A stretch of 64,000 nucleotides of DNA, taken from assembly GCA_963663475.2 (NCBI GenBank), contig CAXXJV010000001.1, positions 352,001 to 416,000 of the forward strand. Reading direction: 5' to 3'. Position 1 is the stretch's first letter, and every line of letters starts with the position of its first letter. Below the pieces are notes generated by a model that made no database searches, had not been told where the DNA came from, and was given only the letters and a program-made list of their open reading frames with translations. The DNA comes from Candidatus Cloacimonadales bacterium (GTDB taxonomy: Bacteria > Cloacimonadota > Cloacimonadia > Cloacimonadales > JAFGVF01). This document shows, one piece after another, positions 5,183-22,006 of the stretch. The translations under genes were made by a program, and so were the position numbers.

Positions 5183-5216
5183 AGCATAGCCTATTATTTT
5201 AGGCTATGCTTTTTTA
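5183..5216 (+). terminator. Rho-independent terminator
   Basis: AGCATAGCCT-loop-AGGCTATGCT followed by a T run. Confidence 0.8.
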
Positions 5217-5239
5217 CTTTTTAGTAAACAGTTAAAAAA

Positions 5240-5625
5240 GGCTCTTGTTCAAGTCTGGTGGGGATAATCCCAGATAGTGTAGTAGAGCTTTAGTGAAGAG
5301 TGCAGATTATTCTAGCAAAATAGCTTACAGAATTTTGACGCATATATTTTATATATTCGGAGAAATTATGGAAGCTACTTTTGCAGAAGAATATAGTGCT
5401 ATTCACAAAGGTCTACTGCATTATTTGGGATAATATAGGTAAATGAGAATATTTCATTACAATATTGATTCATCAAAAATCCCTGAAAGATAAGATGCTG
5501 ACTTGTGAAGGCGTAGCTTTAGCGAAGATTCAAAGTATCGCAAGCCTGGGTAATGATGGCTAGCCCAAAGATATTACCCTGTAAGGGTTTAATAAAACGA
5601 TAAATAATGTATTATTATAATAAGT
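5240..5625 (-). mobile_element. Family B MITE, partial reversed copy containing a family A copy and a family C insert
   Basis: Begins GGCTCTTGTTCAAGTCTGGTGG and then matches the reverse complement of about 13545-13740. Confidence 0.8.
5269..5429 (+). mobile_element. Family A MITE, full length (161 bp), nested in family B
   Basis: CCC...GGG imperfect inverted ends. ATAAT is duplicated on both sides; the corresponding empty site in the B copy ending at 13753 has a single ATAAT. Confidence 0.9.
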
Positions 5626-6489
5626 TTATTGCACTCTTCTACCTAGTCTAAGTCCTAACTTAAAACTCATATAATATTGGACTTTTTCAAACTCATCTTC
5701 TCCTACAATTTGGTTCTCAACACCACCACCAACAGAAGAATATACAGGACCGAGCTTTAGAGTGTACAACAACTCTGCACCTATCGCCTGAAGGTGTTTC
5801 TCGCGTGAAATACCAGAAATAGATTTATTTCTTTCTGTATGGGCTGAAGAATGATAAATTGCCACAGTTGGGTAACTGGTCCTCTTATGTAAATCATTCT
5901 GAGTCCCTAGGAGAATTGCTGCTCTAGTTTCTAAAGAATGTGCATCATATTTAGCAGCCTGTCCTATGCTATCGAACAAATTTCGGGAAAGACTCATAAA
6001 CATCGAAACTCTAAGGGGTTTCTCAGGATTACTAAGTAACCTCTTGTATCCTATTTTAAAACCAGTAAGTTTTGTTCTGCATTGAAATTTTTTTGTTGTA
6101 GTATCATCTCCTGAGGAATAAGAATAAGTATTTGTTCCTCCTTCAGATCCTGCAAGTAAACCTAAGGATAATTCATCAAGATCTGTCAGCCCTAACCTGA
6201 GTGTATAATCATTGTAAATATAAGAACTTGAAGTATTTGAGCCAGTTGCAGAGATTTCTGTGTCATCTTCATCCCAAACTTCATATTCAGTAACATAAAT
6301 CTTATCTAACGTTCTGATCTTTTTAAAAGACACTTCAATCCCAAAAGATCCCCTTTCAATTGGTAAAGCTTCTTCTCCTAAACCTATAGTTCTTGAAACA
6401 GAAGAACTTGATTGATCAACTATACTACAACCACTGAAAATTATTATTCCCAATCCTATTAATACTAAATACATACAAAGCTTTTTCAT
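5626..6489 (-). CDS. Hypothetical lipoprotein, possibly beta-strand rich
   Basis: Lipobox IFSGC. Alternating hydrophobic beta-strand patterns. No family recognised. Confidence 0.6.
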   Translation of the reverse strand: MKKLCMYLVLIGLGIIIFSGCSIVDQSSSSVSRTIGLGEEALPIERGSFGIEVSFKKIRTLDKIYVTEYEVWDEDDTEISATGSNTSSSYIYNDYTLRLGLTDLDELSLGLLAGSEGGTNTYSYSSGDDTTTKKFQCRTKLTGFKIGYKRLLSNPEKPLRVSMFMSLSRNLFDSIGQAAKYDAHSLETRAAILLGTQNDLHKRTSYPTVAIYHSSAHTERNKSISGISREKHLQAIGAELLYTLKLGPVYSSVGGGVENQIVGEDEFEKVQYYMSFKLGLRLGRRVQ

Positions 6490-6685
6490 ATTATCCCCTT
6501 TTTAGCTTACCATTTTTTTATATCTGTTTCTCTTTTTATATATTTTACCACTAATGTCAAGCTTTATTGTTAACTTATTTTATCCTAGTATCTGAGACAA
6601 TTCATGAATTTATGAATTTATGGGTTTATCAACAACATGCTTATCAAGTTAGTTTTTTATTCTTGACCTTATTCATCCCCTACTC

Positions 6686-6762
6686 ATCCCTTACCCTTCC
6701 TTTACACTCTTTCGATGAAAGTCCAGGTTTCATCGAAAGAGTGTAAAGGAAGGGTAAGGGAT
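6686..6762 (+). repeat. Family E hairpin: perfect 35-bp stem with GTCCAGG loop
   Basis: ATCCCTTACCCTTCCTTTACACTCTTTCGATGAAA followed by its exact reverse complement. Further copies at 43230 and 61806. Confidence 0.9.
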
Positions 6763-6894
6763 CAATAAGGAAAATTTGAGACATTTCTTAGATTTTTTTG
6801 CTAAATAGGACCATTTTGAAAAAAATGGACCCTTAAAGATTATGAGGGCTTGTTAAAAAACTTCAAGAAAATCTAAGAAAAGGAGGATAAAGCA

Positions 6895-7611
6895 ATGGTT
6901 GTTATTGAATTTAAAATACCACACGGATTAAAAGCCAAAGCTAGAAGAGAGGGATATTCTCTAGTAAAATATTCAAAACAGCCCTTTTATCACCTCCGAA
7001 AAAAAAATTCTCCTAAAATAGGGAAAAATCATCATAAGTTCCGCAATACCATGCAAGAACTAAAAATATCTTATAGAAAGCTTAATGATGCTGAAAAGCT
7101 AGCACTGAAAGAAAGGAGAAAAAAGGAAGGAAGTACTAAGTCAGACTGGATTCAATTTGTCAGAGAATATTATAGAGGGATTAGTCGTCAAGCTCTTAAA
7201 GAAAAAAGACAAGTAAAAGCTCAAAACAAGAAAGATCAAGTTAACAAGCCACAAAAAGGAATTGAAAGTAAGAATTTAAGAGAAATGAAGAGTGACGAGA
7301 CTTGCTCACGGAGTAGCGACTTCCGACAAATCAACTTATATTCGTCCGAAGTCCCTTGCCTAGGGCTGAGGAAGTCTGGTCTCCAACCCTTATTGACGGG
7401 AGTTGCTCACGTAGTAGCGACTTCCGACAGCTTATATTCGTCCGAAGTCCCTTGCCTACGGCTGAGGAACTCCGGTCTCAAACAACTCAGCGACTTCCGA
7501 CACTCTTCACCCGAAGTCCCTTGCCTAGGGCTGAGGAAGTCTGGTCTCCAACTCACTATTTCATCAACACTATTTTGTGAGTTTGAGATTTTCCCTCAAC
7601 TTCAAGCCTAA
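6895..7611 (+). CDS. Small basic hypothetical protein (about 130 aa) whose frame reads on through the family D repeat array
   Basis: Strong AAGGAGG RBS and Lys/Arg-rich N-terminus. From about residue 131 it translates the repeats. Overlaps the convergent gene by 56 bp. Confidence 0.55.
   Translation: MVVIEFKIPHGLKAKARREGYSLVKYSKQPFYHLRKKNSPKIGKNHHKFRNTMQELKISYRKLNDAEKLALKERRKKEGSTKSDWIQFVREYYRGISRQALKEKRQVKAQNKKDQVNKPQKGIESKNLREMKSDETCSRSSDFRQINLYSSEVPCLGLRKSGLQPLLTGVAHVVATSDSLYSSEVPCLRLRNSGLKQLSDFRHSSPEVPCLGLRKSGLQLTISSTLFCEFEIFPQLQA
7285..7552 (+). repeat. Family D REPIN-like array, 3 units
   Basis: Units of AGCGACTTCCGAC - short variable loop - (G)TCCGAAGTCCCTTGCCTAGGGCTGAGGAAGTCTGGTCTCCAAC. 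Confidence 0.85.
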
Positions 7612-9754
7612 CAAAATAAATACCAGAGCTTACACTAGTAGACTGTGAGTTTTTTCCATCCCAAACATAGCTATGATAACCACTATTCAATAAACCTTGA
7701 TATAAACTTGCTACTTTCTGCCCTTTCAAATTATAAACTGCTAGGTGACCATAAGCTTTCTTAGGAAGAATGAAGCTAATTTTAGTCTCTGGATTGAAAG
7801 GATTAGGATAATTTCTAAGTCCAAAAGCTGATTCACTTGCTGGAATAACATCATCATCTTGATTAGAAACACCTATTGGCAACATTGGTATATCTAAATT
7901 TAATTCTAAGGACTCCATTATCATTACATCAGATATTATTACATCTTGATAATCCCAGCGACTTGCCTTAACAGTATAAGTCCCTGCTCCACAATGATAA
8001 GTGTAATTACCTAAGCTGTCACTAAATTCAGGAAGCTTATCTATAATCTCTATCCTAACACAATCTAAAGGCTGATTAGTGCTTGCATCATAGACATTGC
8101 CACTAAAACCACCAATATAGACTGAACCATACTCATAGGCTCCAATATCAACTATATCAGGATTACTCCCGTTTGCTGAAGCGATTCTTTTATGGTAGCG
8201 TAGGTCAAAATCTGGTAAATCAGGACCATAAGCTCCAGCATCTCTACAAGGTGATGAAGGAGATAAAGAGTAATTATGATTTAAAGTATCTGCAAAAAGT
8301 GGGTCTGCGTAAAGATGATTTTCTGTATAGTAATATGATGGGTAATCGATAATTGGAATTGTCCCAAGGTTATTAAAAAATGAGGTAATATACCCCCCAG
8401 AGTTTCCTCCATAGCTAGTTTGTATATCAATTATGTTATTTGTAAATATCGACGCAGAGCTTCCTCTAGCAGTAATCAGCCAAGAATTGTTTACAAATGT
8501 ATTATTATAGATATATGGTGATGTATCATAAGTGTAAAATAATAGTCCCGCAGGAGAATCTGCTGTTTGTCGCACTAGATTATTAAAAACCCTGATTTGT
8601 CCATCGGGTGCTAATAATGAACGTTTTTCAAAATCCATCACACTACTAACATGTTCATTAGTTTCAATTATATTATTATAAATATATGCTTTATTATTAT
8701 CTCTTGTTTCAGCAGTAACTTGAACGTTCCCAAATAGATAGTTATCAGATAGATAATTTGTTCCAAAACCCCCAGAATATAGATTTATGGGATCTAAGTC
8801 AACTACATTCTTAACTAAAGTATTTTTCCTAGCAAAAACTACTTCAGTTGAATCACCAGAATGACAGCCCCAGCCTCTTTTACCATTATAGGCATAATTA
8901 CCGTAACTGCTTATTCTTCCAAAGTTTATTTCTCTAGTTTCGGTAGCATTTACTTCTGAGCCAAAATTATAATAAGTATTAAAAAGGAATAAAGTTATCA
9001 GGTAACCTCCCGAAGAAGGATAATCTGAAGGACCATTAAAGTAACATCTTGCAATAACAAGATTATAAGCTTCATTAGGAGGGTTTTCTTCTGAAGGTCT
9101 AATTGATAATGGTGTAGGATTCCCATGAGGTAGTGGATATATGTTTGTAGTGATGAATCTACATTTATAAACAACTAAATCCATATTCAAGTTTCTTGTT
9201 CTGAGACCAACACAATTATTTTCGAATGTGCAGTTTTTAACATTAATTAAACCATTAAGAAAATTAATTGCACCTCGATGCCCTCCATGTATATAATTGG
9301 GGGTTTCATTGGGGACATAATTTCCAATAAAGGTATGTCTGATTTCACAATACTCGAATGATGAAATAGGAGCCTCTGGTGTTAAAGCAATACCTCCCCA
9401 CTGGTATTCACTGCCATCTTGATATTTATCAAAAATAATTGGGTCTTCTGGAGTACCGATAGCATTGATTGTCCCGTTAACAACTATCATCTTAGCAACT
9501 GGCTGTGTGGTATTACTGTAACTCCAATCAAAAAGAGCAGGATAATTCATGTCTGCTCCACTAACTAAAATTTCAGTTCCAGGCATGATAGTAAGAGTAA
9601 CACCAGAATCTATATAGAGAAAAGAAGTAACTATATAAGGATCATTATGATGAGGATACCAAAGAGTATTCTCTGTGATATGACCTCCTACTTCTATGGA
9701 AAGAAGAGGAAAGGCAATAAGAACTATGATAAACAATAATATATTGTTCTTCAT
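7556..9754 (-). CDS. Secreted beta-helix-like protein with carboxypeptidase-regulatory-like domain and C-terminal sorting (T9SS type A / FlgD-Ig-like) domain
   Basis: Signal peptide, GTPEDPIIF and NNTFVNN beta-helix signatures, SPCRDAG...DIGAYEY, and a NYPNPFNP...SGIYF...KIVLMK CTD. Confidence 0.75.
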   Translation of the reverse strand: MKNNILLFIIVLIAFPLLSIEVGGHITENTLWYPHHNDPYIVTSFLYIDSGVTLTIMPGTEILVSGADMNYPALFDWSYSNTTQPVAKMIVVNGTINAIGTPEDPIIFDKYQDGSEYQWGGIALTPEAPISSFEYCEIRHTFIGNYVPNETPNYIHGGHRGAINFLNGLINVKNCTFENNCVGLRTRNLNMDLVVYKCRFITTNIYPLPHGNPTPLSIRPSEENPPNEAYNLVIARCYFNGPSDYPSSGGYLITLFLFNTYYNFGSEVNATETREINFGRISSYGNYAYNGKRGWGCHSGDSTEVVFARKNTLVKNVVDLDPINLYSGGFGTNYLSDNYLFGNVQVTAETRDNNKAYIYNNIIETNEHVSSVMDFEKRSLLAPDGQIRVFNNLVRQTADSPAGLLFYTYDTSPYIYNNTFVNNSWLITARGSSASIFTNNIIDIQTSYGGNSGGYITSFFNNLGTIPIIDYPSYYYTENHLYADPLFADTLNHNYSLSPSSPCRDAGAYGPDLPDFDLRYHKRIASANGSNPDIVDIGAYEYGSVYIGGFSGNVYDASTNQPLDCVRIEIIDKLPEFSDSLGNYTYHCGAGTYTVKASRWDYQDVIISDVMIMESLELNLDIPMLPIGVSNQDDDVIPASESAFGLRNYPNPFNPETKISFILPKKAYGHLAVYNLKGQKVASLYQGLLNSGYHSYVWDGKNSQSTSVSSGIYFVRLEVEGKSQTHKIVLMK

Positions 9755-10138
9755 TGTAACTCCTTTAAATATTCGGAGCTTAGGTAATAAGCCTAAGCCC
9801 TTTTAGTTTTTTTATTTCATTAACATCATTTTATGTAGTCTATGTGTATTCTTTGGAATTATAACTACCAAGCACGATTATAGTACAAATATTAACAATT
9901 ATTATGTCAAGATATATTTTGATTATTATTTCCCTCATTAGTGATTAAGAATATTCATTAACAAGTTTACTTCCCTACTAGTATTTTCTTTTTATGTCGT
10001 TGAACATATCACTTTCATTCAAGAGTTCAGATATTCTCATTATAACTTTTTATGATCACTCAATTGATTAAAAAAGTAAGTCTTATTCTTCTAGGAAGGC
10101 TTGATGGTGAATCCAAGTAGTGCAGTATATCTTTAGTG

Positions 10139-10320
10139 ATGAGGAGTGACGGGAGTTGCTCACGGAGTAGCGACTTCCGACAAATCAACTTATATTCGTC
10201 CGAAGTCCCTTGCCTACGGCTGAGGAACTCCGGTCTCCAACTTAGCGACTTCCGACTGACATCTCTTTTGTCTTTCGTCCCAAGTCCCTTGCCTAGAGCT
10301 GAGGAAGTCCGGTCTCCAAC
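10139..10320 (+). repeat. Family D REPIN-like array, 2 units
   Basis: The first ~75 bp is nearly identical to 7285-7362, including the loop AAATCAACTTATATTC. Confidence 0.85.
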
Positions 10321-10423
10321 TCTAGGATTATTTACACTATACTCAAAGTTTAATAAAATTATACTTGACACTAATTATACCATACTTAAGTTTTGAATAT
10401 ATAATAAATAAAGTGGAGGAGAT

Positions 10424-11866
10424 ATGGAACTAGGAAAAATAGCAATAGATTATGCTCGCTCACTAGGAGCTGACTTTGCTGACATTAGAATCCAGAGAAC
10501 TAAACGTGAATTTATCTTTGTACGTGACCTCAATGTAAAAATGTTTAATAATGATGACAGCTATGGTTACGGAATAAGAGTATTTAAGAATGGTGCATGG
10601 GGCTTTGCCCATAACAAAATCTTCACTAAAGATGCAGTAATCGAAACAGTCAAATCTGCTTATAATATTGCTTTAGCATCTTCCCAAATAAACAAAAACT
10701 TCAAATTGCAACTTACTCCCGAAAGAGGCTATATTGATACTTACAAGACCCCTCTTAGTATTGACCCTTTCTCAGTATCGCCTAAAGAGAAAATTGACCA
10801 ACTCTTAGAAATCAACAGAACTTTACTTTCTTATCAAGATATAAAGCAAGCTAGAGCCATGATAATCTCGCAAAATGATGATAAAATCTTAATGAATACT
10901 GATGGTTCTCACTTGAAAATCAATACAACTTATGTATATCCTTCCTATACTGCAGTAGCAGTTAACCAAGAGGATAGTCAATCCCGTTCTTATAACCCAG
11001 GAGCAACTGCTGCAGGTTGGGAGCATGTAATAAATCTAAGACTTTTAGAGAATGCTGATAGAGTAGCTAGAGAAGCTATTATGAAGCTTAATGCAGACTC
11101 TTTGCCTGGAGACAAACGCCGTGATTTAGTTCTAAATCCTGACCACTTGGCTCTTACAATGCACGAATCCGTAGGACATCCAACTGAGCTTGATAGAGTC
11201 TTAGGCTGGGAAGCAGATTTTGCTGGTATTTCTTTTGCAACTCCAGAGAAACTAAAGAATTATCAATATGGTTCAGAAATAGTAAATTTCACAGCTAATA
11301 ATAAGCTTGCTGGTGGTATGGCAACTGCTGGTTATGATGATGATGGAGTACCTAACCAAGAATGGCAAATTGTTAAAGATGGTATTCTTAATGAATACGG
11401 GACTACTAGAGATACTGCTTCTTTCATAGGACAAAGTCTTAGTCGTGGCTGTAACAGAGCTACTAATTATTATGATATGCCAATTAACAGAATACCTAAC
11501 CTTTACTTAGAAGCTGGGGAAAAAGAATGTAGTCCAAACGATCTCATTTCTGCAGTTGATGATGGTGTTATGATTGAAGGACAAGGTTCATTCTCCATTG
11601 ACCAACACAGAATCAACTTCCAATTCGGTGGAGATATGTTCTGGGAAATTAAAAATGGAAAGAGAACTAGACCACTCAAGAAGATTCTTTATAGATCAAA
11701 TAATCCAGAATTTTGGAATAGTGTTGAAGCTATCGCTGATAAGCGTTTCTGGAAATCCTGGGGAGTTAATAATTGTGGTAAAGGACAGCCAAGTCAAACT
11801 GGTAGAATGACCCATGGTGCTTCACCAACCCTCTTTAGAAACATTATGGTAGGAGGTTCAAAATGA
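10424..11866 (+). CDS. tldD: TldD metalloprotease subunit
   Basis: HESVGH zinc motif, DDDG and the C-terminal CGKGQP motif. Confidence 0.88.
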   Translation: MELGKIAIDYARSLGADFADIRIQRTKREFIFVRDLNVKMFNNDDSYGYGIRVFKNGAWGFAHNKIFTKDAVIETVKSAYNIALASSQINKNFKLQLTPERGYIDTYKTPLSIDPFSVSPKEKIDQLLEINRTLLSYQDIKQARAMIISQNDDKILMNTDGSHLKINTTYVYPSYTAVAVNQEDSQSRSYNPGATAAGWEHVINLRLLENADRVAREAIMKLNADSLPGDKRRDLVLNPDHLALTMHESVGHPTELDRVLGWEADFAGISFATPEKLKNYQYGSEIVNFTANNKLAGGMATAGYDDDGVPNQEWQIVKDGILNEYGTTRDTASFIGQSLSRGCNRATNYYDMPINRIPNLYLEAGEKECSPNDLISAVDDGVMIEGQGSFSIDQHRINFQFGGDMFWEIKNGKRTRPLKKILYRSNNPEFWNSVEAIADKRFWKSWGVNNCGKGQPSQTGRMTHGASPTLFRNIMVGGSK

Positions 11867-13146
11867 TAAATAAACTAATAAAAACCATAGATTTTATTAA
11901 GCAGAACATAGATGCTGATGATTATCAAATTAATGCTAACGTAAAAGATTCTTTAGATACCCGTTTTGCTCAAAATAGAATTACCCAAAATATATCAGGT
12001 GTTAAATTTGAAATTGATGTTACTCTTTACTTTGGTAAAAAATCAGGTTCAGTCAATATTGACCAACTTGATGAAAAGAGTATTTTAGATAGACTAGCTG
12101 TAGCAAAGACTATTGCACTCCACTCATCTGAAGATACTGAGTATATCCCTTCTGAAGAAACTAAAGACTTTGATGAATATAACAATTTCGATCAAGAAAT
12201 CGCTGATTTAACTGTTGAAGACCATCTTGCTATTATTAAAATTTGTATTGATAATGCTATCAAGCAAGATGCTCAAGTTTCAGGTATGGTATCACGACAT
12301 ATAATTCATACTTATCTCACTACTAAAAATGGCTTTGAAGGTCAGAATAAGTTCACTATCTTTGAACATTCAATGACTATTAAAAAAGACGATAGAGAAA
12401 CTAGAGTTTCTAGCTCTGTTATCAGAAAGAAACTACATGATTTAGATGCTTTGATAAATCAGCTAAACACTAATTTCCAAGCAATCTCTTCTCCAAATGA
12501 AATGCTCCCTCGTAAGATACCTGTCATCTTGCGACCTCAAGCTGTTATCGATATCTTCTCTTTTATGTCTTGGTTTATGGATAGAAGAGGAGCTGATTTA
12601 GGTATGACGCCTTTCTCTAACATGATAGAAACTCCTTTCTTTGGGAAAAACTTCAATATGTACTCATCTTTAGATGATGAGAGAATTATGAGACCTGCTT
12701 TTGATGGAAATGGTATTCTTAATCAAAATACTGATTGGTCAAAAGATGGTATCTTGAAGAATCTACCTACAGGCAAGGCTTATGCTCAACAACATAATCT
12801 TAAACATGTCAATCATCCATTTAACATTATTATTGCTGGTGGAGATAAAACAGAAGAAGAAATGATGGCCATGGTTGACGAAGGTATTATTATTAACCGC
12901 TTCTGGTACATCAGAGTTGTTGATAGCAAAAGTGGTGAACTTACTGGACTTACCCGAGATGGTGTACTCTACTTCAAAAATGGTAAGATTGAAAAATCTG
13001 TTAATAACTTCCGCTGGAATGAGATTCCTCATGATATGAGCAGGAGAATTCTTGCTCTAGGAAAAGAAGTTGTGAATGATACTAGATCTATTATTCCGAC
13101 AATGTTAGTTGATGATTTTACTCTAGTAGATAATACAAGATTCTAA
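11863..13146 (+). CDS. TldE/PmbA family subunit
   Basis: ATGA overlap with tldD. TRFAQN and TGLTRDG motifs; no HExxxH. Confidence 0.85.
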   Translation: MINKLIKTIDFIKQNIDADDYQINANVKDSLDTRFAQNRITQNISGVKFEIDVTLYFGKKSGSVNIDQLDEKSILDRLAVAKTIALHSSEDTEYIPSEETKDFDEYNNFDQEIADLTVEDHLAIIKICIDNAIKQDAQVSGMVSRHIIHTYLTTKNGFEGQNKFTIFEHSMTIKKDDRETRVSSSVIRKKLHDLDALINQLNTNFQAISSPNEMLPRKIPVILRPQAVIDIFSFMSWFMDRRGADLGMTPFSNMIETPFFGKNFNMYSSLDDERIMRPAFDGNGILNQNTDWSKDGILKNLPTGKAYAQQHNLKHVNHPFNIIIAGGDKTEEEMMAMVDEGIIINRFWYIRVVDSKSGELTGLTRDGVLYFKNGKIEKSVNNFRWNEIPHDMSRRILALGKEVVNDTRSIIPTMLVDDFTLVDNTRF

Positions 13147-13199
13147 ATAAATAAACAACCAATAATAAAGCAAGGGCGAATTTAACAGTTTGCCCTTTT
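12894..13199 (+). repeat. 306-bp direct repeat, copy 1 (tldE 3' end plus terminator)
   Basis: Ungapped alignment with 15769-16074, 12 substitutions. Confidence 0.95.
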
Positions 13200-13201
13200 T
13201 T
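13172..13201 (+). terminator. Rho-independent terminator of tldDE
   Basis: AAGGGCGAA...TTTGCCCTT followed by a T run. Confidence 0.7.
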
Positions 13202-13275
13202 AATATATAAAGTCCTATGATGTGATATAACTATTAGGGAAATTGCAGATTAAGTGGTGCTGTTTAAAAAAGATC

Positions 13276-13753
13276 GGCTCTTGTTCAAGTCTGGTGGTAA
13301 ATAAGAGACTTTCATTATAGCATATTGCTTGAATAATAGAAAGTTACAAGTAAGAATATACTGTTAAGAGTATGTTTTGTTTGATGATAAGTACTAAATC
13401 CTGAAGGGATAAGTCTTAAATCCTCAAAGGGGATAAATAGTTTAGCCTAGGGTAAATTCCTGAAGGGAATGCAACCCTGGGTACTGGTGATGAAAAACAA
13501 AGCCTAACCCTGAAAGGGTTAAATAACATCATATATACCATAGACTTATACAATAATATATTATTTATCATTTTATTAAACCCTTACAGGGTAACATCTT
13601 TGGGCTAGCCATCATTACCCAGGGTTGCGATACTTTCAGCATCTTACCCTGGGCTAAATTATTTTATCCCTTTCAGGGATTTTTGATGAATTAATATAGT
13701 AATGAAATATTCTCATTTTCCTATATTATTCCCACCAGACTTGAACTTGAGCC
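13276..13753 (+). mobile_element. Family B MITE, complete (478 bp), 8-bp TSD AAAAGATC
   Basis: TIRs GGCTCTTGTTCAAGTCTGGTGG and CCACCAGACTTGAACTTGAGCC. AAAAGATC at 13268-13275 and 13754-13761. The interior has inverted CCCTGAAAGGG-type REP arms and no ORF. Confidence 0.9.
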
Positions 13754-13990
13754 AAAAGATCTATCTCCTTGTTTAGGCTAAGTATCATAAGAAACTTCAT
13801 ACATCCTACATAATACCTGTCAATTTAATTTACATTTAGCATACAATATTTATTTTTATAGAAAGATATATGCTAACATTTTTCTTTCACTAGAGAAGAA
13901 AGCTAGTACTAATCAATCTTAAGTAAAAATTTATATTATATAATATTTTGGAATTAATTGTGCTTATAATTAAAAATAAAAGGAGATATT

Positions 13991-15643
13991 ATGAAAGTAA
14001 TTGTTACTTTATTGACTATAATATTATTCACATCTTGTCTATTCTCTTATCAGACCCTGGATACTATCTGGGAGTATGAAAGTGAAAACTTGGAAGATGA
14101 TTTTGGGAAAAATATTACTTCCCTGGACTTTAATGGGGATGGTTATTATGACTTATTCGTAGCAACTGGGGGAGTCATTGCTATTGAGAATGATTCTTTA
14201 CGAATTTTTAATTTTTTATATTATTTTGAGGGCAATCAAGATGGTTTACCTAATACTTATACTTCTATAATCAACTATTCTCCTCTTGAAGAAATTCCTG
14301 ATTCCATAAGTTTCTATCTTGTTGGTGCTTTTGAGAAGATAACCAGTCTAGGAGATGTTAACAATGATGGATATGAAGATTTAGGGTTTATATCAAATTA
14401 TTGGGATGATAGTTTTATTTATTGGGGTGGGCGAATAAATATTATTTATGGAAATAACTATAATGATTTTGAAATTGACTATTCTCTCGACCAATATCAC
14501 CAACCAATCTCTAACTTCAAAGGGTTAGGTGATATTAACGGAGACGGTTATGATGATATGGGCTATATAATTGGATCTGGTAATTCCAATTATCCTCTAT
14601 CTTTCCGAGTAATTGATGGGCAAACATTGGAAGAATATGCAGTCTCTAATGATATTACTATTATTGGAAATCATTATAGTTCAATTGATGGATTAGGTGA
14701 TATAAATGGGGATGGCTTTAGTGATTACTCATATAGTATAGGCGGACGTGAATCTATTGTAGATGAATATGGAAGTACTCGCTGGTACACACAACATAAA
14801 ATTTTTTTGGGTTCTTCCCTTATCGACTCTCTGGCTGATTATACATTTACAACTAAAACTCAAAGCAGAAATGCAAATCTTTTACAAGTAAATGACTTTA
14901 ATGGTGATGGCTATGATGATTTTCTTCTATCTGGTTATGAATTAAACGAGGTAGGAAGTTCGGGTTTAAGATTATGGCTAGGAGGTCAAGATATTGATTT
15001 CTCACACTATTCTCATATAGAATACTATGACTGGTTATATCATTATGCTTGTGATGATATAAATAATGATGGTTATAGTGATATAATAGGTATCAGAAGA
15101 AATTATTCCACTGGATATGTTAATGGTTACCTGGGGGGAGCAAATGGTACTCGAGATATTTATCAAACTTTTCAAGATGGTTTCGGATGGGATATGACCA
15201 GTGGTGATTTTAACAACGATGGTCAAGTTGACTTAGTAGTAGGTTCATACGATACTGTCAGTGCACCTTGGCAGCCAGGAAAGTTAATTATGTTAGCAAC
15301 TTCAAATGATTTAACAGAAATTGATCCCGAAATCAATACTGAAATCGAGAGTGAAGATATTTCATCCCCACAGCCAATTATTATAACATACCCTAATCCA
15401 TTCAACCCTGAAACAACAATATCCTTCAATATTGCAAATCAAACAAATGTTGAGCTTAGTATATATAATATCAAAGGGCAAAAAGTTAAGACTCTTATTA
15501 ATGATAAGCTTTCGAAGGGAGCTCATAAAGTCGTTTGGAATGGTAAAAATTCTTCTGGACTAAAAGTATCTTCAGGTGTATATTTTTATCGTCTAAAGAC
15601 ACCTAAGCTTGATACAATAAGAAAAATGTTGTTAATGAAATAG
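13991..15643 (+). CDS. Secreted FG-GAP/VCBS repeat protein with C-terminal sorting domain
   Basis: Signal peptide, seven D(F/I/V)N(G/N)DG.(D) Ca-binding repeats, and a YPNPFNP...SGVYFY...KMLLMK CTD. Confidence 0.85.
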   Translation: MKVIVTLLTIILFTSCLFSYQTLDTIWEYESENLEDDFGKNITSLDFNGDGYYDLFVATGGVIAIENDSLRIFNFLYYFEGNQDGLPNTYTSIINYSPLEEIPDSISFYLVGAFEKITSLGDVNNDGYEDLGFISNYWDDSFIYWGGRINIIYGNNYNDFEIDYSLDQYHQPISNFKGLGDINGDGYDDMGYIIGSGNSNYPLSFRVIDGQTLEEYAVSNDITIIGNHYSSIDGLGDINGDGFSDYSYSIGGRESIVDEYGSTRWYTQHKIFLGSSLIDSLADYTFTTKTQSRNANLLQVNDFNGDGYDDFLLSGYELNEVGSSGLRLWLGGQDIDFSHYSHIEYYDWLYHYACDDINNDGYSDIIGIRRNYSTGYVNGYLGGANGTRDIYQTFQDGFGWDMTSGDFNNDGQVDLVVGSYDTVSAPWQPGKLIMLATSNDLTEIDPEINTEIESEDISSPQPIIITYPNPFNPETTISFNIANQTNVELSIYNIKGQKVKTLINDKLSKGAHKVVWNGKNSSGLKVSSGVYFYRLKTPKLDTIRKMLLMK

Positions 15644-15721
15644 TATCATATGATCCCATGAGCTTTAAGATCCCAATATAAAGGGTTTTTAAGGCATGGA
15701 CAGATTGATAAAATATATCAA

Positions 15722-15747
15722 AAAGGCACGGTATAAGTCGTGCCTTT
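15722..15747. terminator. Hairpin at the right junction of the islet
   Basis: AAAGGCACG-loop-CGTGCCTTT. Confidence 0.55.
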
Positions 15748-15768
15748 CTAAATTTTGAACATTATTTA

Positions 15769-16074
15769 TAACCGCTTCTGGTATATCAGAGTTGTTGATA
15801 GCAAAAGTGGTGAACTTACTGGGCTTACCCGAGATGGTGTACTCTACTTCAAAAATGGTAAGATTGAAAAATCTGTTAATAACTTCCGCTGGAATGAAAT
15901 CCCGCATGATATGAGCAGGAGAATTCTTGCTCTAGGTAAACAAGTTGTGAATGATACTAGATCTATTATTCCGACAATGCTAGTTGATGATTTTACACTA
16001 GTAGATAATACAAGATTCTAAATAAATAAACAACCTATAATAAAGCAAGGGAGAATTTAACAGTTCGCCCTTTT
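15769..16074 (+). pseudogene. Duplicated 3' fragment of tldE plus terminator (direct repeat, copy 2)
   Basis: Encodes the last 83 aa of TldE with one E>Q change. No credible RBS or start. Confidence 0.9.
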
Positions 16075-16156
16075 CTTCCTTGACAAAAACCCTTTAACAT
16101 ATAATGTAATAATAAAAATAAGTTGTTATTATAATGGGCATTATCAAAGGAATAAT

Positions 16157-16864
16157 ATGAATAATAGTAAAAAAAACTTCAAGAAAGTAGCAAAAAAGCA
16201 TCAACCTAGAGGATTAACCATCCTTTACGAAGATAGAGATATAATAGTTGTAGATAAAATCAATGGACTTCTCTCAATCAGTACCGATACAATTAAAGAG
16301 AATACAGCCTATTATCGTTTGAATAATTATGTTAGAAAAGGCAATCAAAAATCTAAGAACCAAGTGTTTATAGTCCATCGTTTAGATAGAGATACTTCTG
16401 GAGTGTTAGTATTTGCTAAAAGTGAATCTGCCAAGCTCTTTCTACAAAGTGAGTGGCATAATTTTAGTAAGAGTTACTATGCTATTGTATATGGAACAAT
16501 GGATAAGAAAGAGGGGATTTTCACTTCCTACCTTACTGAGAATAAGGCTTATAGGGTTTATTCAGTAGGGGATTCAACAAAAGGGAAATATGCTAATACA
16601 GGCTATAAAGTCATACAGGAATCACAAAAATATTCTCTTCTTGAAATAGCTTTATATACTGGCAGAAAGAATCAAATCAGAGTTCATTTCGCTGAAAATG
16701 GCTTTCCTGTAGCAGGCGATAAGGTATATGGTAAGAAAAATCCTGAGATTAATAGACTAATGCTTCACTCTGCTTCTTTGACTATTTTACACCCTCACAG
16801 CAAAGAGGAAATGACCTTTGAAGCTGATATTCCTCAAGCCTTTAAATCACTTATTAAAAAATAA
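16157..16864 (+). CDS. RluA-family pseudouridine synthase
   Basis: VHRLDRDTSG, TGRKNQIRVH and GDKVYG motifs. Confidence 0.92.
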   Translation: MNNSKKNFKKVAKKHQPRGLTILYEDRDIIVVDKINGLLSISTDTIKENTAYYRLNNYVRKGNQKSKNQVFIVHRLDRDTSGVLVFAKSESAKLFLQSEWHNFSKSYYAIVYGTMDKKEGIFTSYLTENKAYRVYSVGDSTKGKYANTGYKVIQESQKYSLLEIALYTGRKNQIRVHFAENGFPVAGDKVYGKKNPEINRLMLHSASLTILHPHSKEEMTFEADIPQAFKSLIKK

Positions 16865-16914
16865 ATTACTCCAGTTTTCTAGATACTATACTGCATTTTG
16901 GGTTTAAATCTAAA

Positions 16915-16940
16915 AAAAGGAAGTTACAAGAACTTCCTTT
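16915..16940. terminator. Bidirectional terminator between convergent genes
   Basis: AAAAGGAAGTT-loop-AACTTCCTTTT. Confidence 0.7.
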
Positions 16941-16965
16941 TATATATTGTTAAGTATCAGATATT

Positions 16966-18477
16966 TTAGAGTTTATAGGAAATACCAAAATGTAGTACAT
17001 TTTCTGAAAGTGAGCTTGTACTATTATCATATTCATTAGCAATCATAGATTCATCAACTTCAAGTTCAGTCTTAAGATTGAGTTCATATCCAAGATCAAG
17101 GGATAATCTTGGATTAACGTTTAAGCCTAATCCCATAGTGATATGATTTTCCACAACAGCAGGGAATATTGGAAGAACAGTCTCTTCAGGTACAGGATTA
17201 TTACCAAAATTATAACCTGCTCGAACATTAAACATAGGGTTAATAGCATATTCAGCACCTAAAGCAATTACGAATTGGTCATCCCATTCCATTGGCATTG
17301 CCAGCTCTAAATCTTCAGAACCCATCATTGTGTTAATATTTTGATTATTACCATTTTTGAACTTCATTTTAAATTCTTCCATGGAGTCTTTCCAGCCAAT
17401 CCATTTTACATCAGCAGCTAAAAGTAATTGTGGATTTGCCTTATAAGCTAAACCAAGACCAATCTCTTGTGGCCAAGACATTTCCACTTCTGCATCATAA
17501 TCAGCTATCATTCCTAAAGTCATATCAATACCCATAGCGGATAGTTGTTGACCTACCATTTGCTGAGCTGTAGCTACATCAGGAGCACCTTGTTGCATGG
17601 CACCACCAACCATCATTTCATAAGCTTGTCCAAACTGAGCTGTCATATCCATAGAAGCATCACCTTCAAAGGTTAAAGTTGCTTTTGAATTATAAGCAAA
17701 ACCTAAGCTTAAATCTTCATTTACCTTGTATGAGAGGCCTAGTCTAGCCCCAAAGCCCATTGCTGTAGCACCATCTCCCATATCTGCATAAGCAGTTACT
17801 TCTTCATAGCCTAGTCCACCTTGATCCATAGGAGAACCGAACATAGCGCCAAAAGTCATTCCTGTTTGAGAATTAGCCACACCTTTCATTTCTGATGGCA
17901 TTATTGAATATGGCATTTTCATCTCCAACATTGCATAGCCAAAACTAGGTGAAATTCCTATTGAGAAATTCTGATTAACCTGATATGCTAATGTTGGCAT
18001 GACCTTAAGATAAGCAATCATTGAATGATATTCTAAATCATCAATATAGGCATCGTTTTGAGTAGTTGGATCCATATCATACTGTCTAAAAACTGCATGC
18101 TTTACATCTTTATAAGTAGCTCCCATTCCTCCTTGTGAATAGAATCCTAAACCAAATGTTAGAGGATTTTCAGAGCCATGAACATAAGAGAAATTGGGAA
18201 GAGGAAAGATTTCACTTTCTCCTTCTAAATCATTCAAAGAGTTTTCGAATGTTACTTTAGGAATTAATAGACCAAGGGTTAAATCAAATTCTTTATTCTT
18301 GAAAAATGATATTGCTGCTGGATTTGTATTTACAGAATTAGCATCATCAATCAAACCAAGACTAGCTCCACCCATGGATGATGATCTTGGACCGTAACCT
18401 ATCATATTCATTCCGTTTGTAGCAAATAAGAAACTTGTGGCGACTAAAATAATAAGAATTATTAGATTTCTTTTCAT
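16966..18477 (-). CDS. FadL/OmpP1-family outer membrane transporter
   Basis: TNGMNMIGYG...MGGA...NPA hatch signature and a C-terminal aromatic beta strand. Confidence 0.85.
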   Translation of the reverse strand: MKRNLIILIILVATSFLFATNGMNMIGYGPRSSSMGGASLGLIDDANSVNTNPAAISFFKNKEFDLTLGLLIPKVTFENSLNDLEGESEIFPLPNFSYVHGSENPLTFGLGFYSQGGMGATYKDVKHAVFRQYDMDPTTQNDAYIDDLEYHSMIAYLKVMPTLAYQVNQNFSIGISPSFGYAMLEMKMPYSIMPSEMKGVANSQTGMTFGAMFGSPMDQGGLGYEEVTAYADMGDGATAMGFGARLGLSYKVNEDLSLGFAYNSKATLTFEGDASMDMTAQFGQAYEMMVGGAMQQGAPDVATAQQMVGQQLSAMGIDMTLGMIADYDAEVEMSWPQEIGLGLAYKANPQLLLAADVKWIGWKDSMEEFKMKFKNGNNQNINTMMGSEDLELAMPMEWDDQFVIALGAEYAINPMFNVRAGYNFGNNPVPEETVLPIFPAVVENHITMGLGLNVNPRLSLDLGYELNLKTELEVDESMIANEYDNSTSSLSENVLHFGISYKL

Positions 18478-18608
18478 ATGTTCCTCCCGAAACTTAGTGT
18501 TTTGAAATATTATAATTATTATAAACTGATTTAGCTAAATAACAAGTTATAAATGAGATAATAATATTATTGTCTGATTATCGTAAGTAATATTTAACTA
18601 GTTTTTTA

Positions 18609-18706
18609 CCCAGATAGTGTGGTAGAGCTTTAGTAATAATTCGCTAAAGCTAGGCCCTCAAAAGAATAATATTATGCTATTCTGAAAGATCTATTGCATT
18701 ATTGGG
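18609..18706 (+). mobile_element. Family A MITE, deleted copy with a family C insert
   Basis: CCCAGATAGTGTGGTAGAGCTTTAGT start, TTCGCTAAAGCTAG insert and degenerate right end. Confidence 0.7.
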
Positions 18707-18732
18707 AGAATATGCTGTTCATAAGATTATGC

Positions 18733-18767
18733 TTGACATTCTCCAGCAAGTACAATTAAATGTACTT
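18733..18767 (+). promoter_or_regulatory. abiE promoter region with inverted repeat (putative autorepression operator)
   Basis: TTGACA at 18733 and AAGTACA-ATTAAA-TGTACTT at 18748-18767, just before the GGAGG RBS. Confidence 0.55.
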
Positions 18768-18780
18768 ATTGGAGGAGATG

Positions 18781-19371
18781 ATGATTATTACTCACATAGA
18801 TTTGTTGGAGAGACTTAAAGCTTTTGCCTCTCCTAAAGCTAAAATTACTAAATTGATTGAGGCAGAAGACTTAATTCAACTCAAGAGAGGTCTGTATATT
18901 GATAGCAAGTCAGAAAATGAATCCTTGTTTGAAATTGCTAACACCCTCTACGGACCATCCTATATTTCATTTGAGAGTGCTTTATCCTACTATGGATTAA
19001 TACCGGAGAAAGTACAGATTGTTATGAATGCTTCCTTTAAGAAAAATAAGACAAAAACATACCAAACTAAGTTAGGAAGTTTTCATTATTATCATATTCC
19101 AGCTTCAGTCTTCCCTTGGGCAGTAGATAAAATAGTTGACCATAGCCATAGCTTCCTCATTGCTACTCCAGAAAAAGCATTGTTAGATACCCTATATAGA
19201 ATAAGCAAATATGATGGTGATTTAACTGAGCTTCTCATTAATGACTTGCGTATAGACCAAGACTTGCTAAAAACTTTAGACATAGAGGTACTTAAAGATT
19301 TAGCAGCTAAATATAATAGGAAAATTTGCCAGGACTTTACCCTATGGCTAGAAAAGGAGTACTTGTCATGA
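18781..19371 (+). CDS. Type IV toxin-antitoxin antitoxin, AbiEi family
   Basis: LKRGLY, PSYISFESALSYYGLIPE and ATPEKALLD motifs. Start moved to the ATG after GGAGG (ORF track start is 18760). Confidence 0.88.
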   Translation: MIITHIDLLERLKAFASPKAKITKLIEAEDLIQLKRGLYIDSKSENESLFEIANTLYGPSYISFESALSYYGLIPEKVQIVMNASFKKNKTKTYQTKLGSFHYYHIPASVFPWAVDKIVDHSHSFLIATPEKALLDTLYRISKYDGDLTELLINDLRIDQDLLKTLDIEVLKDLAAKYNRKICQDFTLWLEKEYLS

Positions 19372-20234
19372 TAAATCCAGTTATAAGAATGCTAGAAAAA
19401 TACGATATTAAAAGCCTAGAAGATAAGAAAAATGCTTTAAAAGAAATTCTTCAAGAAATTGCTTTACTAGGCCTTTTCCGAGGTAACTTTTTTACTAAAG
19501 CTGCCTTCTATGGTGGAACTGCTCTAAGAATTTTTTATGGATTAGATAGATTCTCTGAAGACTTAGATTTTTCTTTGATTGAGCCAGATAAGAAATTTGA
19601 TTTATATAAATATTTATCCTTTATTGAAAGTGAATTAGGTGCTTATGGTTTTGAAATGAAAGCCGAACAGAAAATCAAAACAAATCAGAGTGATGTAATG
19701 TCAGCATTTATCAAAGGAAACACACTTGTAAATTTGTTAAAAATCAAGCCTGAAAAAAATAATGGATTACAGATTAATCATAATGAACAATTAAAAATCA
19801 AGTTAGAAGTAGATATTAATCCACCTCAATATGGTGAATATGAGGTCAAATATCTACTTAATCCCATTCCTTTCTCAGTAAAGCTCTTTTCTGAATCTTC
19901 ACTTTTTGCTGGAAAAATTCATGCTTTACTTTGCAGACCTTGGAAAAACAGAATTAAGGGTAGGGATTTGTATGATTATACTTGGTATTTAGCTAAAAAC
20001 TCACCCCTAAATCTTATACATCTTGAAGCAAGGATGAAGGCATCAGGACATTTAGCCCAGGATTCAACCTTAACCAAGCAAGATTTATTAGAAATGTTAC
20101 TGAAAAAATTTTCTTTGATAGACTATAAACAAGCAAAACAAGATGTTCTACCATTTATCAAAGATAGTGAAAGCTTACAAGTTTGGTCGCAAGATTTCTT
20201 TGATAGCATTACAAACTTATACTTTAGAAACTAG
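19368..20234 (+). CDS. Type IV toxin-antitoxin toxin, AbiEii nucleotidyltransferase
   Basis: FYGGTALR...RFSEDLDF, KIHALL and KGRDLYD motifs. ATGA overlap with the antitoxin and an AAGGAG RBS. Confidence 0.9.
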   Translation: MINPVIRMLEKYDIKSLEDKKNALKEILQEIALLGLFRGNFFTKAAFYGGTALRIFYGLDRFSEDLDFSLIEPDKKFDLYKYLSFIESELGAYGFEMKAEQKIKTNQSDVMSAFIKGNTLVNLLKIKPEKNNGLQINHNEQLKIKLEVDINPPQYGEYEVKYLLNPIPFSVKLFSESSLFAGKIHALLCRPWKNRIKGRDLYDYTWYLAKNSPLNLIHLEARMKASGHLAQDSTLTKQDLLEMLLKKFSLIDYKQAKQDVLPFIKDSESLQVWSQDFFDSITNLYFRN

Positions 20235-20250
20235 GGTTGTAAAAATATGG

Positions 20251-20303
20251 TCTGAGGGCATCTTTCTGCCCTCAGATTGTGGAAGCAAGCATACTTCCAC
20301 TCC
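20251..20303. repeat. Two adjacent GC-rich hairpins (REP-like or terminator) between convergent genes
   Basis: TCTGAGGGCA...TGCCCTCAGA and GTGGAAG...CTTCCAC. Confidence 0.55.
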
Positions 20304-20324
20304 ATAATTAATATTTAGATCAAT

Positions 20325-21773
20325 CTATACTACCAGTAACAACTCTTTAATAAAAGTATAGATTTTAGATATATCTTCAATAAGAAGTTCTTCTCTTGGA
20401 GTATGCACATTTCTGATAGTAGGTCCCATAGAGATCATTTCCATATCTGGATATTTAGAGCCAATTAAGCCACATTCTAAGCCAGCATGAATCACTTCAA
20501 TAATAGGTTCTCTACCAGTAATTTTCTTATAAGTAGCCTTAGTTTTATCAAGGAGATTTGAATCCCAGATAGGTTCCCAAGCATTGTAAGGATCTCTATT
20601 TTCGACCCTAGCTCCTGTTAAGAAACCTAAGAAATGAATCTTATTTGTAAGAACTTGAAGCATTGACATAACGGAGCTTCTTTGGGAAGAGGTAATTACT
20701 ATTTGGTCTTCTTCTGTATTGATTAAAGCCAGGTTATTAGAAGTTTCAACTAAATCTTTGATTTGCTTAGACATTCTGAAGATACCATGTGGGAAAACAG
20801 CTAATACTTGCATGATTTTACTTGCAAATTCAGGAGTAAAGACTTTTCCTTTACCTTCACTTGCTATCAATTCAATAGTCATATTAGGATCAGAAGTAAT
20901 AAACTCCTTTCTCATTGTCTCTTGACATTGAGCTATAATATCTTTAGCATCTTCAATATCGTCAGGATTGATATAGATATCAATTTCAGCATTATGAGGA
21001 ACTGCATTATGAGCTATACCACCATGATAGTTACTGATTTCAATATCACAAGCTGAATCTAGTTCTATTATAACCCGATTAGCTATTTGAATAGCATTTG
21101 CTTGTTGTTCATTAATCATAACTCCTGAGTGGCCACCCATAAGCTTAGAAACTTTCACTTGCATCGCTGTGAAAGCATCACTTGGGTCTGTTAATTCTAA
21201 GGGGTAGTAGAGACGAGTCTCTTCCCCACCAGCACAACCAATAGTAAAAATGCCTTCATCTTCTGAATCAATGTTTAATAAATACTTACCTTTTAGCCAG
21301 TTTTCTTTGAGAGCAGCAGCACCAGTAAGACCTGTTTCTTCATCGACAGTAAAAAGAAGTTCTAAGGGACCATGTTTTGCTTCTTTATCAGTAGCTAAAT
21401 ACATAGCAATAGCCAAAGCAATACCATTATCTGCACCTAGGGTAGTTCCATTAGCCTTAAGCCAGCCATCTTCAATCTTCATTGTTATTGGATCTTTAAA
21501 AAAGTCATGCACAGTATCAGGATCTTTTACACATACCATATCCATGTGACCCTGCAAAGTTACTACAGCTTTATCTTCATAGCCAGGACTTGCAGGAACT
21601 CTTATTAATACATTACGAACATGATCCATTTCAGTTTGGAAGCCTTGTTCTTTCCCCCAATTAAGTAACCATTGAGAGATTTGCTCTTCATTCTTAGACT
21701 TTCTAGGAATCTTATTTATAGCTTCAAATATCTCTAAGACACCTTGTGTAATAGAATCTTCTGAATATTTCAT
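20325..21773 (-). CDS. pepD: Aminoacyl-histidine dipeptidase (M20C)
   Basis: QGHMDMV, TTLGADNG, VDEETGLTGA, NIDSED and IHAGLECG motifs. Confidence 0.92.
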   Translation of the reverse strand: MKYSEDSITQGVLEIFEAINKIPRKSKNEEQISQWLLNWGKEQGFQTEMDHVRNVLIRVPASPGYEDKAVVTLQGHMDMVCVKDPDTVHDFFKDPITMKIEDGWLKANGTTLGADNGIALAIAMYLATDKEAKHGPLELLFTVDEETGLTGAAALKENWLKGKYLLNIDSEDEGIFTIGCAGGEETRLYYPLELTDPSDAFTAMQVKVSKLMGGHSGVMINEQQANAIQIANRVIIELDSACDIEISNYHGGIAHNAVPHNAEIDIYINPDDIEDAKDIIAQCQETMRKEFITSDPNMTIELIASEGKGKVFTPEFASKIMQVLAVFPHGIFRMSKQIKDLVETSNNLALINTEEDQIVITSSQRSSVMSMLQVLTNKIHFLGFLTGARVENRDPYNAWEPIWDSNLLDKTKATYKKITGREPIIEVIHAGLECGLIGSKYPDMEMISMGPTIRNVHTPREELLIEDISKIYTFIKELLLVV

Positions 21774-21841
21774 TATTACCTCTTATTTATTTATTTTTAT
21801 ACGATTATACTTGAAGTGATTTTTTTGGCAAGAAGATTTAT

Positions 21842-22002
21842 CCCAGATAGTGTAGTAGAGCTTTAGTGAAGAGTGCAGATTATTCTAGCAAAATAGCTTA
21901 CAGAATTTTGACGCATATAATTTATATATTCGGAGAAATTATGGAAGTTACCTTTGCAGAAGAATATAGTGCTATTCACAAAGGTCTACTGCACTATTTG
22001 GG
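21842..22002 (+). mobile_element. Family A MITE, full length (161 bp)
   Basis: Near-identical to 5269-5429. TTAT on both flanks. Confidence 0.9.
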
Positions 22003-22006
22003 TTAT

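Follow-up and report, generated by a model that had tools for sequence, protein, structure and literature searches.

Direct repeats undergo concerted evolution by gene conversion, and the DNA between them can be lost or relocated by general recombination. The locus described here is a repeat of this kind. It is a duplication of the 3' end of tldE, a housekeeping peptidase gene, in a wastewater and digester bacterium of the uncultured phylum Cloacimonadota (Candidatus Cloacimonadales, genome G000; 3.3 Mb in 2 contigs), and its two copies bracket an islet with a gene for an FG-GAP repeat protein. The stretch of DNA that was analysed, hereafter the window, comprises 64,000 nt, and all coordinates refer to it unless another region is named. 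The islet is probably an old insertion-duplication, made behind the tldE terminator without an integrase and reshaped since then by recombination.

A similar arrangement is found at e14 in the icd gene of Escherichia coli. According to the part of PMC13626634 that deals with it (citing Hill et al. 1989), the displaced icdC 3' fragment carries mostly synonymous and a few conservative differences, and loss of e14 yields a chimeric but working icd gene. The tldE islet shares with icd/e14 the intact gene with a duplicated 3' end, the displaced fragment at the far side of the insert, and the predominance of synonymous differences. Unlike e14, which has its own integrase and a fixed attachment (att) core, the tldE islet lacks an integrase, has variable breakpoints at microhomologies, and is flanked by a 314-bp repeat that evolves in concert.

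Type VI secretion system (T6SS) and Rhs loci of Vibrio contain “orphaned” 3' ends and immunity genes that were pushed downstream and kept (relevant sections of PMC5361080 and PMC3240628). The tldE islet resembles these loci, and also homology-facilitated illegitimate recombination, in having a conserved upstream anchor, an illegitimate join at the far end, and no integrase; in mechanism it is closest to them. It differs from the Vibrio arrays in that the displaced pieces there are different alleles that do not cluster by genome, whereas the tldE copies are homogenised. In addition, the anchor here is a housekeeping peptidase gene and no toxin system, and the foreign origin of the first insert is putative. 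Clustering of the copies by genome despite shared junctions, an empty site in one species, and an ectopic copy with one repeat are features of direct repeats that evolve in concert, although it is atypical of such repeats that one partner is a gene fragment without a function of its own. No description of this locus was found in the literature on homology-facilitated illegitimate recombination, icd/e14, and type IX secretion in Cloacimonadota; the coverage was narrow, and this is no claim of absence from print.

Structure of the tldE repeat

Repeat copy A (12886..13199, forward strand) contains the last 87 codons of tldE, the stop codon, the 3' untranslated region (UTR), and the terminator. 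Copy B (15761..16074, forward strand) consists of the displaced tldE 3' fragment with its UTR and a weakened terminator. The first-pass annotation, made from the sequence alone, had reported a gapless 306-bp pair, and this was reproduced: positions 12894-13199 and 15769-16074 form a direct repeat with an offset of 2875 and 12 differences. Eight of the 9 coding differences are synonymous (12909, 12948, 13023, 13026, 13029, 13062, 13105, and 13122). The only amino acid difference, E402Q at 13066, is Glu in copy A and Gln in copy B, and the 3 non-coding differences (13161, 13177, and 13191) lie past the tldE stop codon, in the UTR and terminator. Inclusion of an ATTATT microhomology (12886-12891 / 15761-15766) and two mismatches moves the start of the repeat to 12886/15761 and gives 314 bp at 95.5% identity. 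No third copy is found in the 3.3-Mb genome.

At the other end, the homology between A and B stops in the T-run of the tldE intrinsic terminator hairpin (13172..13197, forward strand). The hairpin of copy B has a mismatch and falls below detection in the terminator scan. Copy B is contiguous with rluA, just like the end of tldE at the empty site of a sister species (see below), and contains an open 88-aa frame with a TTG start (15755-16021). A promoter signal above that of shuffled sequences was not found for copy B, and Rfam gave no match within the repeat.

The gene at the anchor side is an intact tldE/pmbA-like gene coding for 427 aa (11863..13146, forward strand; Pfam PF19289, E = 6.8e-30). 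It overlaps by 4 nt the upstream tldD gene for a TldD/PmbA family peptidase of 480 aa (10424..11866, forward strand; Pfam PF01523/PF19290/PF19289), and the PF19289 domain together with this neighbour assigns it to TldE/PmbA. The duplicated 3' end thus keeps the target gene at full length, and full-length 427-aa tldE orthologues are found in all 7 genomes of the genus. As the first-pass annotation held, the islet has no integrase: no integrase or transposase Pfam families are found in open reading frames (ORFs) of at least 110 aa in positions 1-32000 of the window. There are also no tRNA genes in positions 5000-25000.

The islet in related genomes

Relatives were located by a DNA search of 41 genomes, and the matching regions were then compared. 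G000, G004, and G006 represent sister species, with tldD genes 92-95% identical; G002, G003, and G005 are members of the genus farther from G000. In these three more distant genomes, tldE is followed, directly or after a miniature inverted-repeat transposable element (MITE), by an AbiEi/AbiEii pair homologous to positions 18732-20213 of the window, and this adjacency is likely to be the ancestral state. In G000, G004, and G006, rluA and/or a FadL gene lie between tldE and AbiE.

The sister species display three states of the locus. In G006 the tldE site is empty, with the order tldE, terminator, rluA, FadL. G004 has the spacer of G000 behind tldE; next come the promoter, an FG-GAP gene for 540 aa, ~196 nt from the start of a large gene, and a tldE fragment beginning at repeat position 111, with FadL after it. 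This locus has neither the MITE nor rluA. G006 carries the cassette at an ectopic position 0.46 Mb from tldE, between an RNase_H_2-family gene and PHO4, as an array of an FG-GAP gene (540 aa), a gene for a 1515-aa type IX secretion system (T9SS) protein, the tail, the full 314-bp tldE fragment, the spacer and promoter, and another FG-GAP gene (544 aa). G000, G004, and the ectopic G006 copy have the same terminator-spacer junction, and the junction of tail and fragment is letter-identical between G000 and the ectopic G006 copy. Therefore, the insertion-duplication arose once, and the tldE islet is old and common to the sister species. The first-pass annotation had suggested a comparison of tldE-rluA intervals in relatives; this comparison, with its shared junctions and the empty G006 site, speaks against an arrival of the cargo together with one of the present copies.

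At the G000 site that corresponds to the ectopic array of G006, a resident FG-GAP gene was not found; there is an IS21 element instead (L020:2573-4782; G000:C1, ~790.0-792.3 kb), an IS21-type pair of an IstA-like protein (494 aa) and IstB (242 aa) between PHO4 and the RNase_H_2-family gene. It lies exactly where G006 has its FG-GAP array, and therefore this intergenic site is variable as well.

A second duplication is found in G002. It arose independently and brackets the ancestral neighbour, the AbiE toxin-antitoxin pair. The G002 fragment extends from repeat position ~65 to the terminator, is frameshifted, and has lost the stop codon; it sits behind the ancestral AbiE pair, and synteny ends after it. 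Fragments thus start at repeat position 1 in G000 and G006, ~65 in G002, and 111 in G004, each at a microhomology of its own: ATTATT in G000 and G006, an imperfect GTTAA..ACTTCC in G004, and 10-11 nt (TTACCCGTGAT) in G002. G003 has this last sequence at two places, within tldE and downstream of AbiE. An illegitimate joint at such a microhomology, beside a homologous anchor, agrees with homology-facilitated illegitimate recombination, and the different breakpoints at different microhomologies point to illegitimate joining and not to an att site or a site-specific core. With differing breakpoints, all at microhomologies, and no integrase, the att-site restoration considered in the first-pass annotation is not supported.

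How widespread such duplications are was assessed with the last 83 residues of TldE as a query. Among the 203 genomes of the order searched, 167 gave a match at E <=1e-10, and exactly four of them (G000, G004, G006, and G002) contained two tldE 3' matches, which amounts to 4 of the 7 genomes of the genus and 0 of the 163 others. At a laxer cut-off, the additional hits elsewhere are paralogues, 39-45% identical and located in long open frames. The four genomes reflect two independent events, only one of which involves a surface-protein gene. A genus-specific tendency for duplication of the tldE 3' end is thus supported. The earlier view of tldE as a hotspot for surface-protein cassettes is supported as regards the repeated involvement of the 3' end; it is not supported as regards the cassettes, for which there is one independent insertion only, the G002 duplication bracketing AbiE.

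Concerted evolution of the copies

Although they share the duplication junction, the paralogous copies cluster by genome, as expected under gene conversion. At nine sites (12940, 12942, 12957, 12966, 13084-13086, 13098, and 13137), copies A and B of G000 share a state that is absent from all other copies; positions 13084-13086 form an Arg codon in both, with Ser in the other copies. The ~204 bp that the two G004 copies have in common differ only at one site and at the junction. In a maximum-likelihood tree of the 204 columns common to all copies, the two copies of G000 group together with support of 93/95 and those of G004 with 95/95. Because the junctions shared between genomes exclude independent duplications, the copies were homogenised within genomes. 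Copy B also shares 13026C, 13029G, and two junction letters with the ectopic G006 copy, and therefore the homogenisation was patchy. The first-pass annotation had taken one copy to have arrived with the cargo from a related strain. The junctions shared with sister species, the nine derived sites common to A and B, and the clustering of the two copies argue against this, and the phylogeny of both copies that it called for groups them by genome, homogenised since the insertion.

The synonymous bias is strong. Between A and B there are 8 synonymous differences and 1 nonsynonymous difference (dS 0.166, dN 0.005), and the ratio of 0.03 compares with dN/dS of 0.04-0.08 for pairs of functional orthologues over the same stretch. 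Random mutation of this stretch would be 21-30% synonymous (at transition/transversion ratios of 1-8), which gives P = 3e-5 to 4e-4 for at least 8 of 9. When polarised by the other copies, Glu402 is the derived state, in the intact gene, and Gln is ancestral; on the B side, the 5-6 derived changes are all synonymous and none is an amino acid change of its own. By comparison, the ectopic G006 fragment has seven amino acid changes (R>C, F>S, K>I, T>L, G>R, D>H, and V>S) and shows unprotected decay. The first-pass annotation was thus right that the bias is not that of a fragment decaying in place but the pattern of functional alleles. Gene conversion from A would erase changes in B and cannot make new changes in B synonymous, and we therefore take A and B to differ as functional alleles do. 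Copy B would then be a snapshot of a functional allele and not a product of in-place decay, because the B-rluA stretch is collinear with tldE-rluA of islet-free strains.

Integrity of the assembly

A repeat of this type could result from misassembly, and the first-pass annotation had named a chimera of two strain haplotypes as the finding that would undo its reading. Such an artefact is extremely improbable. Short-read contigs from two samples of organism A (runs X21 and X22 of one study, which may be the data underlying the G000 assembly) bridge all four outer junctions with 0 differences: they run from the 5' part of tldE into copy A (11800-12939), from the end of A through the spacer into the MITE (13131-13302), from the MITE end through the gene and the tail into B (13728-15814), and from the end of B into rluA (16006-17000). 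In favour of an artefact, the short-read contigs end inside the repeat. Against it, apart from the bridged junctions, two wastewater metagenomes of other studies contribute independent contigs, one with the spacer joined to the promoter and no MITE between them, the other with the tail-repeat junction. The latter is covered by a 586-nt contig (15479-16065) with 21 differences, and the tail-repeat junction is therefore present in a relative. Homologous structures are also found in G004 and G006, whose chromosomes are each single-contig. No direct 13199-16075 joint and no B-to-A circle joint were listed among the short-read contigs, which are unable to show absence.

Origin of the islet and alternative explanations

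In the proposed sequence of events, a spacer, a promoter, an FG-GAP gene, a large T9SS gene, and a terminator tail would have been placed right after the tldE terminator, and the far end of this cassette would have been joined back to tldE at about codon 342, at ATTATT. This illegitimate join would have duplicated the last 314 bp of tldE, leaving the gene intact and a 3' fragment before rluA. Comparison with the relatives shows the later changes. In G000, the large gene contributed its C-terminal domain to the FG-GAP propeller through an internal deletion, and the MITE was inserted; in G004, a deletion removed the large gene from near its start and reached into the repeat; and in G006, the tldE site is empty and the cassette lies elsewhere with a tldE scar. 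Gene conversion, as shown by the shared derived sites and the tree, keeps the repeat copies alike within each genome. The synonymous A-B differences would represent variation filtered by selection in working tldE alleles, and either the intact gene or the B-rluA stretch may have been overwritten since then by allelic recombination with relatives.

Several observations weigh against this old insertion-duplication or limit it. The middle of the repeat forms a separate 251-nt contig in the short-read data, so that the contigs cannot phase it; this contig has the letters of copy A except at 13023/26/29, perhaps because the assembler collapsed two paths. Once homogenised, B would be expected to gain mainly nonsynonymous changes of its own. 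Those unique to it, 3-4 in number (12948, 13062, 13122, and perhaps 13105), are all synonymous (P ~0.002-0.03), which forces the extra assumption of allelic overwriting, and no donor allele for it was found among the genomes compared. The comparison includes one genome per species, and a metagenome scan with a 20-nt degenerate repeat motif added no further strains: it yielded at least 119 loci, and among those listed only L075, which is the G005 contig, belongs to the genus. The step of origin itself is read from the junction sequences only. It could be a template switch in replication (at the terminator hairpin), homology-facilitated illegitimate recombination of imported DNA, or circle integration, which are indistinguishable here.

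The bias towards synonymous differences is also what a single recent import from a related strain would leave, in which the cargo brought in A, either through homology-facilitated illegitimate recombination or on a circle integrated by a single crossover, and B is the displaced tldE end of the recipient. The dN/dS of 0.03 fits two functional alleles, there is microhomology at the tail-repeat junction, the G000-G004 divergence steps up at the repeat, and the G002 fragment is nearer to the G003 allele than the intact G002 copy is. Nevertheless, we consider such an import unlikely. The nine G000-specific derived sites of A and B are interleaved with the differing sites and the two copies cluster together; both junctions are shared with other species, so the insertion is older than the present A-B divergence; and a single double-crossover cannot put recipient sequence at the same positions of both copies. 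If the islet were instead a decayed site-specific element, similar to a cis-mobilizable element (CIME) or to e14 in icd, the repeats would be attL and attR and the integrase would be lost or act in trans. The architecture would suit this: an intact gene, the cargo, and a displaced 3' fragment with mostly synonymous differences, as in icd/icdC around e14 (PMC13626634). Yet there is no integrase in positions 1-32000 of the window, the G000 genome has two repeat copies only and so no partner bearing attP, the fragment starts vary (1, ~65, and 111), each at its own microhomology, and the homology stops at the terminator T-run and not at a shared core. We regard this explanation as very unlikely.

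Two further explanations dispense with any outside allele. If the duplication were purely local, with B drifting neutrally and being converted by A, the synonymous excess would be due to chance and a few old unconverted sites. Such a history agrees with the clustering by genome, with the microhomologies at the junctions, and with the small counts (3-4 changes unique to B), but it is hard to reconcile with the low probability of at least 8 synonymous changes in 9 (3e-5 to 4e-4) and with 5-6 of 5-6 derived changes on the B side being synonymous; neutral decay looks like the ectopic G006 copy with its 7 amino acid changes. It seems, on these grounds, rather improbable. Selection on copy B itself, whether on the 88-aa TTG ORF or on an RNA or terminator element before rluA, is suggested by a frame that is open in both G000 and the ectopic G006 copy and by the terminator-like hairpin within the fragment, and is highly improbable. 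The fragments of G004 and G002 are shorter and show a stop in six-frame matches, that of G002 being also frameshifted and without its stop codon; the G006 copy has 7 amino acid changes; and the hairpin of B is mismatched and failed the terminator scan, with no promoter signal above shuffles. A functional 88-aa peptide was rejected, the fragments elsewhere being broken or decayed and the promoter signal not exceeding that of shuffled sequences.

Cargo gene and MITE

The first-pass annotation placed a MITE and a secreted FG-GAP protein gene between the repeat copies, and Pfam searches, inverted ends, and a target duplication bear this out. Copy A is followed by the cassette spacer (13200..13275, forward strand), which is kept beside the repeat in G004 and in the ectopic G006 copy and whose last 8 nt are the MITE target site. 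Beyond the MITE lie the 5' region of the FG-GAP gene (13754..13990, forward strand), collinear with G004 and both G006 paralogues, the gene for the 550-aa FG-GAP repeat protein with a T9SS C-terminal sorting domain (13991..15643, forward strand; assigned by Pfam), and, as delimited by the terminator scan and the genome comparison, a 3' tail (15644..15760, forward strand) with a terminator (15722-15747). The PF18962 sorting domain occupies residues 467-546 (E = 1.3e-8), and the protein is accordingly predicted to be a T9SS cargo.

The G000 FG-GAP gene is a chimera: its propeller comes from the FG-GAP family and its C-terminal domain from the adjacent 1515-aa T9SS gene that survives in G006. Nucleotides 1-1427 match FG-GAP genes of the relatives at 87-90%, whereas the counterpart of nucleotides 1399-1653 and of the tail is the 3' end of the 1515-aa gene, at 91-93%. 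Both source genes are recognisable, and therefore the ancestral cassette held an FG-GAP gene and a large T9SS gene; G000 lost the stretch between them, and the loss in G004 began near the start of the large gene and reached into the repeat. In DNA searches of the 41 genomes, the propeller was found only in the three sister species.

The T9SS C-terminal domain and the terminator tail constitute a module that is repeated behind several G000 genes, with tails 76-83% identical. The tail module (15644-15754) recurs at G000:C1 near 32.0 kb, 1908.4 kb, and 2526.7 kb, where the genes before the tails have paralogous C-terminal domains. This repeated module offers homology for recombination among cargo genes.

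The 478-bp MITE (13276..13753, strand not assigned) has 25-nt inverted ends and an 8-bp target duplication, AAAAGATC, on both sides; the end sequence in G000 is GGCTC(T/A)(T/A)GTTCAAGTCTGGTGG. The genome contains 4 other full-length copies at >=99% and well over 100 further, partial hits. It is absent from the islets of G004 and G006, and a 225-nt wastewater contig of another study joins 13267 to 13754, so that an islet without the MITE exists there. With its inverted ends, target duplication, many copies, empty site, and lack of a transposase, the element is a MITE, and a recent insertion. Its end sequence and 8-bp duplication may resemble those of ISL3-type elements. Positions 13618-13681 (forward strand) inside the MITE give a sub-threshold Rfam match to Acido-Lenti-1 RNA (33.4 bits, with a gathering score of 37; E = 5.5e-5); this motif sits in a MITE arm and is repeated genome-wide. 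In G004, a MITE interrupts the AbiEi/AbiEii pair (L013:9316-10583), with the end of AbiEi and the start of AbiEii lost.

Recombination with relatives and neighbouring genes

Recombination between the species is evident, and the exchange with relatives presumed in the first-pass annotation is thus real. A 534-nt segment of the G000 gene (14643-15176) differs from the 544-aa G006 paralogue by <=3 mismatches, compared with ~7% divergence in tldD/E; the segment was found by counting mismatch runs, as megablast at >=97% between the islets gave no rows. Elsewhere, identity among FG-GAP paralogues is only 53-65%, and within G006 the pair has a 377-nt stretch at the 3' ends with <=3 mismatches. Divergence also changes near the repeat edge: differences between G000 and G004 rise from 19/606 nt (12234-12839) to 30/307 nt (12840-13146; Fisher P = 7e-5), and dS rises from 0.17 in tldE codons 1-344 to 0.41 in the repeat part (P = 0.01), with 0.39 for FadL beyond the islet.

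The FG-GAP/T9SS genes (13991-15643; L013:5552-7174; L015:4053-5687, 10984-12606) are mosaic, with 100-nt segments 53-100% identical between paralogues and species and with hypervariable blocks at about nt 260-460 and 660-760 of the gene. Such mosaicism would be consistent with diversifying selection on a surface protein.

Downstream of copy B, the window contains genes for an RluA-family pseudouridine synthase (16157..16864, forward strand; Pfam PF00849) and a FadL/TodX-type outer-membrane transporter (16966..18477, reverse strand; Pfam PF03349), followed by the pair of an AbiEi-like protein (203 aa) and AbiEii (302 aa) (18760..20234, forward strand; assigned by Pfam PF08843 and synteny). The dS of rluA between G000 and G006 (16157-16864 versus L014:5261-5968) is 0.75, ~2x that of tldD, tldE, and FadL (0.31-0.41).

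Significance

A tentative and somewhat doubtful extension is that the duplicated tldE end serves for attachment without a recombinase, as homology that travels with the cassette: general recombination might loop the cassette out as a one-repeat circle, which could re-enter related genomes at tldE, without harm to the gene, or at a paralogue. If true, this would explain the empty tldE site of G006, its ectopic cassette, in which two FG-GAP genes flank a tldE scar, and the occurrence of nearly identical FG-GAP segments in different species, and repeated passage through a working gene would, by indirect selection, keep the fragment undamaged.

The old insertion-duplication is itself a tidy and fairly ordinary piece of genome tinkering and represents no new class of mechanism. 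It also cautions annotators that a displaced fragment with purely synonymous divergence is not necessarily a fresh import or an att site. In the uncultured phylum Cloacimonadota, it provides a well-resolved natural example of a gene islet built and moved without a dedicated recombinase: an illegitimate join would have produced a long direct repeat of a housekeeping gene end, and general recombination would later have made its copies alike, removed portions of the islet, carried the islet to another position, and passed it between species. In these digester bacteria, FG-GAP/T9SS surface proteins are mosaic and are exchanged between species.

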